This document shows positions 9,359-37,991 of a stretch of 45,246 bases of DNA, one piece after another. The position numbers were made by a program, and so were the translations under genes. Origin of the DNA: a virus (taxonomy: Duplodnaviria > Heunggongvirae > Uroviricota > Caudoviricetes); the IMG/VR virus record IMGVR_UViG_2778261297_000003. The stretch is one strand, 5' to 3'. How positions within the stretch are numbered: the first letter of the stretch is position 1; each line of letters opens with the position of its first letter. Below the pieces are notes generated by a model. It did not search any database. It was given only the letters and a program-made list of their open reading frames with translations, and was not told where the DNA came from.

Positions 9359-11218
9359 TCAGTAATTCATGGCCGTTGTTATTCTGCCATTATTTTCCGC
9401 ATTATAGGTTTTACGCTCCCCCTTATCATTGACCATCGTGATTTCAAGCTTGAGAGACTGATCGGACATGGCCTCCTTAAACGACCGCGCCAGATTTTCA
9501 CTAAGGGCAACTTCATCACTTTTCCCTTGTTGTGTTCTGAGTATCGTGGGTTCTTGATCCACGCCGCGTGATCCAGAGATAATGTCATACCGCTGCTGGG
9601 CCAGCACATCTGGATTTCTCTTCCCTGACCACCGATCATCAGTAATGGCGGTCTGGATGGCGTTTAGCAGTTGTTCCTCAGTATAAGGTTGTGCGCCATT
9701 CTCATGTTTAATCATAGCTGCCATTATCGTTTTTAATGTTTCCGGATCGTGCAGATTTACTTGCTCTTTGGCTCCATATCCAGTGGCTTTTGAGACGGAG
9801 TCAATATATGCACGAGTATTATTCTCTGATTGCGGAGCATAGGTATGAATAATCCCATCCAGAGTATTATTCCCCCTGTCACCATACAACATCAGCTGTC
9901 TCGCCATTGCAGTTCTTCCGTCGGCATCATTCGCAAAGGTAGAAAATCCGCCATTTTTACCCGTTGCGTTTGCTGCAACCCTCAAATTACCGGGATTATT
10001 ATTTCTGAAGCCAATTGCGTTATTCCTTGTTTCCCCGTAAGGAACATTGCCGCGTGCAACGTTGGATTGTGGCTGGCTGATAGCGGATAAGTCATTCTGC
10101 AATTGAATCGCAGAATCGGTCGCGCGGTAATTCGCATCGTACCGCTTTCTTACAGCATCAGTCATGAAACCCGCGTCAACCTGCCCACGTTCACTGCGGG
10201 GTAAGCTGTTATAAAGTTCCTTATCGTTCTGAATGCGCCGTAGTTTCTCAGCATCATTGCTGTTGATAAAACCGAGAGCATGAGACAGCCCAGTAAAATC
10301 ACCATTAGTGAACAGATCGGTAACACCTTCAAGGCCGTCTTTGACTGAACCATCCGAAAGAATGGTCTTAAGTGCCTTGTTTTTTGAACGTTGCCACAGA
10401 CCATCCCAGGATGCGCTGAGCTCATTCATAGTGCCGTTCACTTCACTCAATTGCTGATTTAGTGCCGGATCCACAGTCAGACCAAATTCATCCGATTTCG
10501 CCAGCAGCTTTTTCATGCGCTCACCGTCACGCATTAGCGCCAGCAATTCGGGCGTCAGCCCAAGTGCATCAGCGGCGGACTTCTGCTGTTCAGGTCGCAA
10601 GGTTGGAAAAATTTTTGCGATAGACTCCAGTGTTTTAAGGGTATTTACTGAACCATCGCTGTTTTTTTGGATTTGAGCACCAATTTGCGCCATCGCTGCC
10701 ATAACCCCCTCGTTTTTACCACTGGCAGCCTCATTGAATGCTTTGAAAATACCTTCTATTGATGCATTAGCGCTCTCGCTGTCTGCCCCAAGAATACGCA
10801 TTGCCCCGGAAAGTCGGGTAAAATCGTCAACGCGCATTCCCGCATTTTTTGCCGAGACATCAAGATTATAGGCCTGACGGGATGCCTCCCGAAATCCATA
10901 AGCGACCTGTTTCAGTCCGTAGCCGGCAGCACCGGCTAACCCCAGCGCCCCCATCTTCCCCGTGAGCTCCCCCACCATTTTCAGTGGGGGAACCATGTCG
11001 CCAATAAACTGCACGTTATCCCGCGCGCTCTTCGACATATTCTCGAGGCGAGAAATAAAACCGCTCAGTCCGTCGGCTGTTTCCTGACCGCCTAACTTGA
11101 GCCCTTCTTTAGTTTTATCTAGCTTCGGCTCCAGGTCACGGACAGCCTCATTAATGCGGTCTATAGCCTCGCTAACCTGGTCGCTGGCCACCAGCTCAAA
11201 ATCAAAAGAATTACTCAT
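9359..11218 (-). CDS. tail tape measure protein
   Basis: 619-aa ORF, Ala/Gly/Leu-rich and helical in character, located after the tail chaperone gene. Confidence 0.85.
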   Translation of the reverse strand: MSNSFDFELVASDQVSEAIDRINEAVRDLEPKLDKTKEGLKLGGQETADGLSGFISRLENMSKSARDNVQFIGDMVPPLKMVGELTGKMGALGLAGAAGYGLKQVAYGFREASRQAYNLDVSAKNAGMRVDDFTRLSGAMRILGADSESANASIEGIFKAFNEAASGKNEGVMAAMAQIGAQIQKNSDGSVNTLKTLESIAKIFPTLRPEQQKSAADALGLTPELLALMRDGERMKKLLAKSDEFGLTVDPALNQQLSEVNGTMNELSASWDGLWQRSKNKALKTILSDGSVKDGLEGVTDLFTNGDFTGLSHALGFINSNDAEKLRRIQNDKELYNSLPRSERGQVDAGFMTDAVRKRYDANYRATDSAIQLQNDLSAISQPQSNVARGNVPYGETRNNAIGFRNNNPGNLRVAANATGKNGGFSTFANDADGRTAMARQLMLYGDRGNNTLDGIIHTYAPQSENNTRAYIDSVSKATGYGAKEQVNLHDPETLKTIMAAMIKHENGAQPYTEEQLLNAIQTAITDDRWSGKRNPDVLAQQRYDIISGSRGVDQEPTILRTQQGKSDEVALSENLARSFKEAMSDQSLKLEITMVNDKGERKTYNAENNGRITTAMNY

Positions 11219-36034: not shown

Positions 36035-36661
36035 ATGGAAACGGTTGGTCAGCGCATTAAAGCCCTACGCAGGGTTACAAAAACCTCTCAAAAAGAACTG
36101 GGTAAGTTCTGCGGGGTTAGTGACGTAGCGGTGGGTTATTGGGAAAAGGATGTGAATATCCCAAACGGGGAATCACTGGTTAAGCTGGCTAAATTCTTCA
36201 ATACATCAATAGATTACATTCTTTACGGCACTGAATTTGAAGGTACCCTCATAACTAAAATGAGGCGTGTGCCCGTGATTTCCTGGGTTCAAGCTGGGCA
36301 GTTTACGGAATGTAAAGCCGCTGATTTATTCAGTGATGTCGATAAATGGGTTGAAACATCACTTCGCATTGGGGATAGCTCGTTCGCTTTAGAGGTCAAA
36401 GGGGATTCAATGACCAATCCAAATGGCCTCCCAACAATCCCTGAAGGGGCAACCGTTATTGTTGATCCAGATGCCGAACCCCTTCATGGCAAGATTGTGG
36501 TTGCGCGTATTGATGGCACTAACGAAGCGACTGTTAAAAAACTTGTCATTGATGGCCCACAAAAATTTTTAGTGCCACTAAATCCTCGCTACCCCAACAT
36601 CCCGATCAATGGTAACTGCCTCATTATCGGCGTTGTTAAAGGCGTTCAGTACGAACTCTAA
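36035..36661 (+). CDS. cI: CI-like repressor (HTH plus S24 LexA-type autopeptidase domain)
   Basis: 208 aa; N-terminal HTH (..SQKELGKFCGVSDVAVGYWEKD..), Ala-Gly cleavage site (VQAGQF), GDSM serine motif and downstream KK lysine. Confidence 0.9.
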   Translation: METVGQRIKALRRVTKTSQKELGKFCGVSDVAVGYWEKDVNIPNGESLVKLAKFFNTSIDYILYGTEFEGTLITKMRRVPVISWVQAGQFTECKAADLFSDVDKWVETSLRIGDSSFALEVKGDSMTNPNGLPTIPEGATVIVDPDAEPLHGKIVVARIDGTNEATVKKLVIDGPQKFLVPLNPRYPNIPINGNCLIIGVVKGVQYEL

Positions 36662-36690
36662 TCCCTTCCCGCTCTTCCTCTAAGCATCAA

Positions 36691-36742
36691 GCTAAGTTTA
36701 GTTTGATGTTTCACTTGACCAACAAACTAAGTTAAGTTAGAT
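36691..36742. promoter_or_regulatory. OL-like operator cluster downstream of cI
   Basis: GCTAAGTTTAGTTTGAT (36691-36707) and AACTAAGTTAAGTTAGAT (36725-36742) repeat the OR half-site motif CTAAG/CTTAG. Confidence 0.5.
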
Positions 36743-36862
36743 TTTTTCTGTCGACACCAAACCACCGCGCCTGATGTGGTTAAAAGCAGGCCAAAGCATT
36801 ATGAAGTGATCCCTGTTCTGGCTGTTCACTTCCCATGAGGGTGACAGCCAGCTTTTTAAGGG

Positions 36863-36942
36863 CACAACGTGAAAGCGCACTCCATCAACTATCGGTTGTG
36901 GATGACAGGTAAGTAAACAGGCGGAGTGCGCTTCCAGTTGTG
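36863..36942 (+). repeat. structured element A (about 19-bp stem, 39-nt loop) in the untranslated leader
   Basis: 5' arm CACAAC-G-TGAAAGCGCACTCC pairs with 3' arm GGAGTGCGCTTCC-A-GTTGTG. Confidence 0.5.
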
Positions 36943-37205
36943 ATGAATTGCAGCCCTTTGAGGCAACCAGAAGATAAGCACCTGGCGTCACAGCACTATT
37001 GAACATGGCGAAAGCCGAAAGACTTGAAGGCGGTTTTCTCAGGTTGCGCGCTAAAGAATAGCGGGGAGAACCTGGGGCGGAGAGCAAACCCCGCGATGCA
37101 GGACTTGAAATACCTCACAGACCAATAAGCCGTCTGGCAGCGTAACTGCCCTTTACATCAGCCCCGGCGAGGTGGCGCCGCCGGACCGGGGCTGGTGAAT
37201 CGCAA

Positions 37206-37281
37206 CACAACATGAAAGCGCATTCCTCTTTTCACTGATGGGGATCGGTTTGTTACCTGGCGGAGTGCGCTTCCAGTTGTG
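37206..37281 (+). repeat. structured element B (second copy of element A with a G-U-compatible substitution)
   Basis: Same arms as element A (CACAAC-A-TGAAAGCGCATTCC ... GGAGTGCGCTTCC-A-GTTGTG); a C to T change yields a G.U wobble; loop differs but keeps ATCGGTT and a ..GGC junction. Confidence 0.5.
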
Positions 37282-37619
37282 GTAATGCGGCTCTGCGCAC
37301 GTGACGAGGCCAACAAGTTTTTATTTCAACTTTTGAAATGAATACGTTTCTTGTGGTGTAGCGTCGCCGGTTCTGGCCGGTCCGGCAGGTGGAGGCACCA
37401 CCGCCACAACAACATCATTGCTGTGTGTAGTCTTTGCCCATCACATCGGTGGGCACCTTTTTTACACAAGAGACAAGGGCATCACCGGGCGACGGGCTCA
37501 TTCCCCAATCCACCCGGGCAAGAGGATAGCGATTGCAGTCGCCGACAAATGCAGGTGCCCTTCTCTGTTGTGTATGGAGAAAGTTCGGCGGTGGCAGCCG
37601 CCATAACGAGGGTAAAACC

Positions 37620-37991
37620 ATGAGTAATGACCGCATGACCGTAGTGCCCGACTTTTTGGGCGAGCTGGATGCCGGTGTGTTCATGAACAAAATCGCGGCA
37701 GCACTTAACACCACCGCGCTTGGCGTTCTGAACAACGGCAACAAAGGCAAAGTAGTCCTCACCTTTGATTTTGAGCGTATGGGTAATTCCGTTGAAGAGA
37801 AGCGCGTCAAGATCAAGCACAAGCTGAACTACAGCACCCCAACCCCGCGCGGTAAAGCCTCCGAAGAGGACACAACCGAAACCCCTATGTGGGTTAACAA
37901 AGGCGGGAAGCTAACCATCCTCCAGGAGGATCAGGGGCAACTGTTCGGGATCACCGGCGCGGTGGACGGAAAGCTTAAAGCGGCTCAGTGA
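37620..37991 (+). CDS. hypothetical early protein (YfdP-like position)
   Basis: 123 aa from MSNDRMTVV with GAGGG RBS; first ORF after the long leader. Confidence 0.5.
   Translation: MSNDRMTVVPDFLGELDAGVFMNKIAAALNTTALGVLNNGNKGKVVLTFDFERMGNSVEEKRVKIKHKLNYSTPTPRGKASEEDTTETPMWVNKGGKLTILQEDQGQLFGITGAVDGKLKAAQ

Follow-up and report, generated by a model that had tools for sequence, protein, structure and literature searches.

The virus record IMGVR_UViG_2778261297_000003 of IMG/VR, whose 45,246 nucleotides are called the window below, is a lambdoid prophage of Escherichia coli; an identical stretch is present in strain EC09, and E. coli ST536 O21:H9 has the same leader. Between the PL-like promoter of its early-left operon and the first protein-coding gene, a member of the yfdP family, lies a leader of about 870 nt. 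The RefSeq/PGAP annotation of the identical E. coli sequence has no coding sequence (CDS) there, in agreement with the initial annotation of the window, which had seen no credible open reading frame (ORF). What does this long untranslated RNA do? Two copies of a long hairpin, A and B, had been noticed in it, and put-like antitermination RNAs, RNase III processing sites and a regulatory small RNA (sRNA) were proposed as candidates. We followed up these proposals computationally. A and B are confirmed to be two diverged copies of one ~80-nt RNA hairpin. By analogy with the biogenesis of DicF in the Qin prophage, both hairpins and a third, related one (C) may be RNase III-type processing and stabilizing elements of the non-coding PL leader, a reading to which we assign a probability of roughly 0.55.

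Hairpins A and B in the early-left leader

Hairpin A lies at 36863–36942 and hairpin B at 37206–37281, both on the plus strand, and the two-copy arrangement reported at these positions was recovered by a repeat finder. It gave direct repeats at 36863–36883/37206–37226 and 36908–36942/37247–37281, and the inverted arms of A at 36870–36883/36923–36936. The 23-nt 3′ arm occurs exactly twice in the 45 kb, against zero expected occurrences. The folding energies were −32.8 kcal/mol for A and −34.8 kcal/mol for B (z = −3.0 and −3.6, respectively), and none of 200 shuffled sequences was equally stable in either case. The 19-bp stem first described was found in both copies; it consists of 6 bp, a bulged G or A, 2 bp, an A·C 1×1 mismatch, and 11 bp. 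The 35–39-nt loop proposed above it is present as an apical region but is not a plain loop, as it contains a 7-bp inner helix with compensatory changes. With these two helices, A and B have the generic size of an RNase III substrate (about 20–22 bp, mostly paired). C36880 of A corresponds to T37223 of B; the opposite base is G, and B retains the pair as a U·G wobble (37223/37265), as had been predicted. An Rfam scan yielded no family covering A or B, and no credible match covering them at a relaxed E-value. The conserved 3′ flank of B (37282–37305, GGUAAUGCGGCUNNGCGCAC) contains GCGCAC, which is complementary to GUGCGC of the hairpin's own 3′ arm; therefore, an alternative pairing is possible.

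The strand of A is not decided by energy alone, since its minus strand folds with a z score of −6.5. The plus strand was chosen because the one-sided substitutions of the hairpin family, and not the energy, fit it. A gapped pattern scan of IMG/VR found the family, hereafter class V1, in at least 120 viral contigs, with 78 distinct copies among the matches listed. A covariance model, R1, was built from the window-type family; it scores A at 89.8 bits and B at 79.2 bits. In the R1 realignment of the copies (77 distinct sequences), the outer helix is 97.7% paired, an invariance that is partly by construction because the search pattern fixed the stem core. The one-sided changes that keep a standard pair are all C-to-U changes producing U·G on the transcribed strand (46 cells; 28 + 11 + 3 + 4), and the U·G at the position that distinguishes B from A recurs in 28 of the 77 sequences. 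In the inner helix, compensatory changes were observed at five of the seven pairs. The covariation score was not matched by any of 500 shuffles, and pairing dropped to 27–43% in slid controls. The covariation and the one-sided U·G changes indicate that the element is selected as a folded plus-strand nucleic acid. This strand is that of the early-left transcript, and the orientation of the element always follows early-left transcription. The RNA-level function suggested by the initial annotation is thus supported by the plus-strand wobbles, by compensatory changes within the inner helix and between hairpin classes, and by the constant orientation.

In most phage records examined, the element lies a few hundred bases 3′ of the repressor gene on the same strand, and annotated phages show cI followed by the element. 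Of 51 representatives, about 27 have a gene for an HTH/S24 repressor as the nearest sizeable same-strand upstream ORF; in the others this ORF is mostly spurious or interposed. The copies come from viral contigs and phage records and stand mostly in repressor-proximal leaders, which argues against a chromosomal repeat of the REP or ERIC type. A protein-coding region is equally out of keeping with the data: no CDS is called, conceivable ORFs differ in frame and content where the apical cargos of the hairpins are swapped, and conservation tracks RNA pairing. Among 5,426 complete E. coli genomes, 3,639 have a Qin-type copy (discussed below), to which the records listed assign no feature, and 28 have a B-type copy. 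At least 16 other species assemblies, almost all from Enterobacterales, contain window-type copies. In the annotated records examined, the copies are left without a feature, and no Rfam 15 family matched any copy scanned. The most abundant V1 subtype (L006 2503–2583, Klebsiella phage ST11-OXA245phi3.2; about 20 similar contigs) is flanked by small divergent genes in the neighborhood of terminase and tail genes and has two stem mismatches, C·A and A·G.

A is 93.8% identical to a copy in coliphage mEp390 (BLAST against phage records), and the closest relatives of B are found in Klebsiella prophages and phage LLS. The two-copy arrangement, with its 343-nt period, is also present in loci L013, L016, L026, L042, and L122. 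LLS has a single hybrid copy, with a 5′ flank as in A and a 3′ flank as in B. The flanks are shuffled between phages, and the LLS copy looks like an A/B recombinant; the shuffling is more likely to be a consequence of the repeats than their function.

The Qin hairpin upstream of dicF and RNase III

The E. coli K-12 prophage Qin was examined because the leader sRNA of one relative matched DicF. R1 detected a V1-type hairpin in it at L147 2674–2757 (match 2670–2762; 36.5 bits, E = 2.3e-9). This position corresponds to approximately 1,649,173–1,649,256 of MG1655, about 125 nt upstream of dicF. The Qin hairpin has the layout 7 bp, bulge, 2 bp, A·C mismatch, and then at least 10 bp, and AAGCGCA...GTGCGCTTCC.GTTGTG is invariant in the alignment. 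Judged by sequence and architecture, A and B are homologous to it.

DicF processing has been studied experimentally. The dicBF operon has a "long untranslated region", which contains the location of the Qin hairpin (PMC5069750). For a 190-nt DicF species, the 5′ end depends on RNase III and lies between nucleotides 813 and 814 of the dicBp transcript; the 53-nt form requires RNase E, and bands of the upstream ydfA RNA are lost in an rnc deletion (10.1101/2023.04.14.536235). In their account of DicF processing, Ragunathan et al. 2023 confirm Faubladier et al. 1990 (10.1101/2023.04.14.536235). We estimated the position of the cut in two ways. Measured back from the dicF 3′ end, 190 nt lead to about 2746–2751 of L147, and counting 813 nt from an inferred dicBp start at about 1939 (TTGACC-17-TAATCT) leads to about 2751. 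The RNase III cut would thus map, to within roughly ±5 nt, into the 3′ arm of the Qin hairpin (2739–2757), beside the 2-bp island. RNase III accommodates about 22 bp in its groove and has base-pair preferences, and between its cuts lie two positions that usually form pairs, at least one of them G-C (PMC6212723). These in vivo rules fit the conserved 2-bp island in the irregular region. A transcriptome study reported a further RNase III site at 1649470 in the dicF-dicB spacer; it falls in a Qin flank (L147 2958–2984) that resembles the sequence just 3′ of B.

Qin and the window agree in operon position. In both, the hairpin belongs to the sense strand of an early-left operon, 3′ of a cI/DicA-type repressor gene and 5′ of a terminated sRNA, and relatives keep this order; the spacing to the sRNA is also similar (125 nt in Qin and 138 nt from B to the seed). 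However, the Qin hairpin is preceded by three small ORFs (ydfABC), whereas the window has a wholly untranslated leader with two copies, and the sRNA of the window has an RprA seed and an RprA-like terminator where Qin has a DicF seed. Cleavage has been published for Qin, whereas cleavage of A and B, with its consequences, would follow by homology. On this analogy, the enzyme acting on A and B is most likely RNase III, so that of the candidates initially proposed, the processing site is the one that gains support. The irregular helices of about 20 bp would be cut at the conserved region of the bulge, 2-bp island, and 1×1 mismatch. A cut in B would create the 5′ end of an sRNA precursor, which RNase E may then trim, as for DicF. 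The hairpin left at the 3′ end of the upstream fragment would shield the upstream RNA from exonucleases, and hairpin C, at the 5′ end of the downstream yfdP mRNA, would shield that mRNA in the same way.

Organization of the leader and its relatives

In this reading, the leader is a small operon of non-coding RNAs, laid out as PL, hairpin A, a spacer, hairpin B, an RprA-seed sRNA with its own terminator, hairpin C, and yfdP. The sRNA and hairpin C were not listed in the initial annotation. The predicted sRNA module (37327–37464, plus strand) was detected by a terminator scan and by the relaxed Rfam scan as RprA-like (41.5 bits, E = 0.0019; gathering score 70). Its seed, AUUGCUGUGUGUAGUCUUUGCCC (37417–37439), is identical to the RprA consensus over 23 consecutive nucleotides, which belong to the conserved 3′ seed region of that host sRNA. 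The intrinsic terminator spans 37435–37463, with the stem at 37435–37455 followed by a T-run. The module may be a seed-swapped sRNA in the DicF position that mimics RprA. Therefore, the proposal of a regulatory sRNA stands for the module 3′ of B, but not for A or B themselves.

Hairpin C (37465–37572, plus strand) begins immediately 3′ of the T-run of the sRNA terminator. It was found by a scan for hairpin arms and folds at −47.7 kcal/mol (z = −3.3), with 18 of 20 positions of its basal helix paired. Its sequence, CACAAG-A-GA-C-AAGGGCAUC...GGUGCCCUU-C-UC-U-GUUGUG, makes it the third superfamily hairpin of the leader. The arm scan found relatives of C in 13 other loci. Relatives of C sit upstream of yfdP in ST64B-type phages, which accounts for the BLAST matches of window positions 37459–37640.

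The superfamily became apparent from weaker R1 matches (E = 1e-9 to 1e-5), mostly located 170–450 nt 3′ of the main copy on the same strand. They are long hairpins that keep the CACAAC/GUUGUG base and the layout of bulge, 2-bp island, and mismatch. Between them, the island changes in a compensatory manner from UG/CA to GG/CC or GA/UC, and the arm from AAGCGCA/UGCGCUU to AAGAGCA/UGCUCUU, AAGGGCA/UGCCCUU, or AAGCGCG/CGCGCUU. They differ in the size of the apical cargo, which is between about 30 and 100 nt. The arm scan yielded 209 hairpins in 128 loci (98 distinct arm pairs, typically one to four hairpins per leader); because it required stable arms, these numbers are evidence for abundance and organization and not for unbiased covariation. 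Conserved motifs are present in the apical cargo: V1 has a loop with UGG, and other classes have T-arm-like hairpins (GGUUCGAUUCC). The T-arm-like stem-loops occur in hairpin 3 of L008 and L048 and in hairpin 2 of L074 and L079, as if tRNA fragments had been captured. In class V2 hairpins (e.g., L011 7031–7109), the 3′ arm has UGCUCUUU, the first 8 nt of the rrn boxA, in base-paired form; it is absent from the hairpins of the window.

In the family leaders, non-coding RNA modules follow one another, with hairpins of a single family between them. In 70 of 126 loci, V1 is followed on its 3′ side by the RprA seed GCUGUGUGUAGUCUU and a variable, covarying terminator; from the U-tract of this sRNA to the next hairpin there are usually 0–7 nt. 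A compact unit of about 165 nt is seen in mEp390-type leaders: V1, then a 24-nt linker, and after it the seed and the terminator. In one relative, the terminator hairpin of the leader sRNA gives a match to Rfam DicF (33 bits, gathering threshold 48, E = 3.7e-5); apart from this, tRNA was all that Rfam scans of the related loci detected. Some leaders contain a tRNA-Arg(UCU) gene whose first nucleotide lies 2 nt ahead of a hairpin's last one (13 of 60 loci, and L148 1503–1838 of E. coli PCP07014). Gene and hairpin share the same 3 nt in every case, the terminal GUG being positions 1–3 of the tRNA, so that RNase P and hairpin processing would share the junction. The loci with this junction include L011, L029, L034, L035, L037, L038, L057, and L059–L062. 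A tRNA-like element (Rfam tRNA, about 40 bits; 68-nt insertion; no ARAGORN call) is inserted exactly between two hairpins at L048 1116–1241 and L033 1800–1925. In many leaders, the hairpins are preceded by a conserved non-coding module with a small, terminal covarying hairpin, CCYCGG-AAGAG-ACGRGG (L001 2207–2449, L048 ~930–1018, and L092 ~10215–10304); its annotation in mEp390 as a hypothetical protein (mEp390_036) is probably spurious.

Within the window, the leader is bordered by recognizable features. The cI-type repressor gene (36035–36661, plus strand) has HTH_3 (E = 1.8e-10) and Peptidase_S24 (E = 6.5e-27) Pfam domains and is named "LexA family protein" in the identical E. coli record. 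A consensus scan predicted the PL-like sigma-70 promoter, TTGACC-17-TAGATT, at 36715–36743 (plus strand); operator-like repeats flank it, and transcription would start at about 36750. The yfdP-family gene (37620–37991, plus strand; PHROG 204, unknown function), taken from the ORF list and the RefSeq annotation, is the first protein-coding gene of the operon. In EC09, the annotation runs from the Q antiterminator through a Cro/CI family regulator on one strand and lists the LexA family protein, a hypothetical protein, YfdQ, more genes, and the integrase on the other. At the gathering threshold, Rfam 15 gave no match over the whole window, and no tRNA was found in it. Two additional GC-rich hairpins had been proposed. 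The one at 37061–37094 folds no better than chance (z = −0.27), whereas the one just 5′ of B, delimited here as 37156–37197 (plus strand), is strong (−31.4 kcal/mol, z = −4.0); it lacks a T-run and lies outside the family. Except for this hairpin, the 263-nt A-B spacer (36943–37205) has no recognizable module. Just 5′ of A, a terminator-like hairpin (GGCUGUUCAC...GUGACAGCC, then AGCUUUUU) is located at 36818–36858, within a segment of about 70 nt that is missing in relatives such as L048, whose hairpin directly follows AAAAGCAGGC.

Competing explanations and known systems

Several points weigh against RNase III-type processing as the function of these hairpins. The position of the Qin cut rests on a fragment length and an inferred start, not on a published coordinate. 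The fixed core of the search pattern partly limits the outer-stem covariation of V1, and the hairpin set of the wider arm scan is ascertainment-biased. An RprA-seed sRNA is absent within 1.5 kb in 56 of the 126 V1 loci, and A of the window is followed by a long spacer in which no module is recognizable. The arms are more conserved in sequence than a generic RNase III substrate needs, and they may have another sequence-specific partner. Moreover, processing leaves unexplained how transcription passes the strong terminator at 37435–37463 to reach yfdP and int, and how 870 nt of untranslated RNA escapes Rho. Because of these two gaps, antitermination stays alive as a rival.

A broader reading, which we offer tentatively, is that the leader is a phage non-coding RNA operon with dedicated punctuation. 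One superfamily (CACAAC...AAG.GCA / UGC.CUU...GUUGUG) would frame interchangeable cargos and separate tRNA-Arg, tRNA-like elements, and a DicF-scaffold sRNA with an acquired host RprA seed. Its hairpins would have a recognition partner of higher specificity than RNase III, or would also make RNA polymerase resist the internal terminator and Rho. If this were true, an induced phage would hijack the RprA regulon.

A put-like processive antiterminator, in which RNA polymerase is bound by the nascent hairpin, with or without Nus factors, and is made to read through the sRNA terminator and Rho sites, appears unlikely to us. In its favor, a good intrinsic terminator lies between B and yfdP in an untranslated leader, and no N-like gene is evident; for the first PL genes, also in several relatives, the only matches are PHROGs without a known function. 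For N-less lambdoid phages of this kind, put was suggested in the 2025 Genome Research paper on phage LLS (PMC12315714). The mEp collection is described as Nus-dependent (PMC11893012); it presumably includes the V1-carrying mEp390, which that paper does not name. Like the put RNAs of HK022 and HK639, the hairpins are promoter-proximal, cis-encoded structured RNAs in an early operon of N-less lambdoid phages. In most cases V1 is the hairpin nearest to the promoter, its distance of 9–352 nt from the −10 element covers putL-like and putR-like distances, and its helix sequence is strongly conserved. However, the family is unrelated to put in sequence, is found in the PL operon only, and forms multiple tandem variable copies. 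Inspection revealed no likeness in sequence or fold to putL/putR of HK022 or to the HK639 putL-like RNA, R1 finds nothing in the HK022 or HK639 genome regions, and put has a two-stem V shape (PMC9378689) instead of one long hairpin. The window has only two matches, both in the PL leader, and no copy in the PR operon, although this result carries little weight because the put-like element of HK639 is also in PL only. Hairpins recur past the terminator, as C does, and their apical parts vary by tens of nucleotides. No boxA (UGCUCUUUAACAA-like, up to three mismatches) was found at 36650–37650, the boxA-like 8-mer of the paired V2 3′ arm being outside the window. The Qin homologue, in addition, is located where the RNase III cut maps. 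The put-like candidate of the initial annotation is therefore not supported.

About as unlikely is a structural or protein-binding domain that acts without cleavage, as a 5′ stability cap or as a platform for leader RNAs (for ProQ, Hfq, or a phage RNA-binding protein, or as a decoy target). The compactness of the mEp390-type leaders, the conservation of the arms beyond the needs of pairing, and the conserved apical motifs (the UGG loop and the T-arm-like stem-loops) would suit such a role. However, V1 occurs without the sRNA in the 56 loci mentioned above, the same basal helix frames unrelated cargos of very different length, and an RNase III-dependent end maps in the Qin homologue. A DNA-level element, either a recombination linker at a mosaic boundary or an attC-like folded single-strand site with incidental RNA structure, is highly improbable: the flanks are of discrete, shuffled types (as in the LLS copy), A and B resemble alleles of different phages (mEp390 and Klebsiella/LLS), and the CACAAC...GTTGTG base is loosely like the attC R″/R′ boxes, but the one-sided changes are wobble-compatible on the transcribed strand only, the changes in the inner helix and between classes are compensatory, the orientation is fixed relative to transcription, and no recombinase is associated.

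Other candidates were rejected on inspection. An integron attC-like site has no integrase here and one position per core box off consensus, and the evidence favors the transcribed strand. A CRISPR-repeat mimic (wrong length and sequence), a retron msr/msd (no reverse transcriptase), type III antitoxin repeats (wrong period), and a Y RNA (no Ro-type helix) were also dismissed. The observed range of promoter distances speaks against a fixed promoter-to-hairpin distance. A Pas-sRNA preprint and the mEp021 paper have no bearing on the hairpin element.

Processing by RNase III upstream of DicF was already known in 1990; therefore, the kind of element is known. The hairpin family, its arrays, the fixed tRNA-Arg junction, and the association with an RprA-seed sRNA are not described in Rfam 15 or in the literature searched. 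The 870-nt untranslated stretch can now be understood as an organized array of RNA modules, neither junk nor a put site, and this array is tied to one experimentally studied case, the biogenesis of DicF in Qin, whose hairpin belongs to a large family without a matching Rfam 15 family. The tentative expectation in the literature of an HK022-like put RNA in N-less lambdoid phages of the LLS/ST64B type would be corrected accordingly. The covariance model is available and predicts places of RNase III cutting in many prophage leaders. Prophage sRNAs that carry the seed of RprA, an sRNA of the core genome, offer a possible route by which induced prophages could reprogram host regulation.

The neighboring sRNAs can be compared with two known sRNAs. 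The leader sRNA shares 23 consecutive nucleotides and a similar terminator with RprA (RF00034), but its 5′ half is unrelated. The sister leader sRNAs have a DicF-type terminator hairpin (RF00039) and occupy the place of dicF. Both likenesses are below threshold (41.5 against 70 and 33 against 48 bits) and concern the sRNA next to the hairpins, not A or B. For the hairpins themselves, the early RNase III sites of T7 (R0.3–R1.3) and the RNase III hairpin of the lambda N leader offer a comparison. These have internal loops at the cleavage region, and the retained hairpins stabilize the products. Like the superfamily, they are sequence-related irregular hairpins between the units of an early polycistronic transcript. 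However, they have no sequence similarity to the superfamily, which separates mainly non-coding RNAs (sRNA, tRNA-Arg, and tRNA-like elements) and carries a variable apical cargo.

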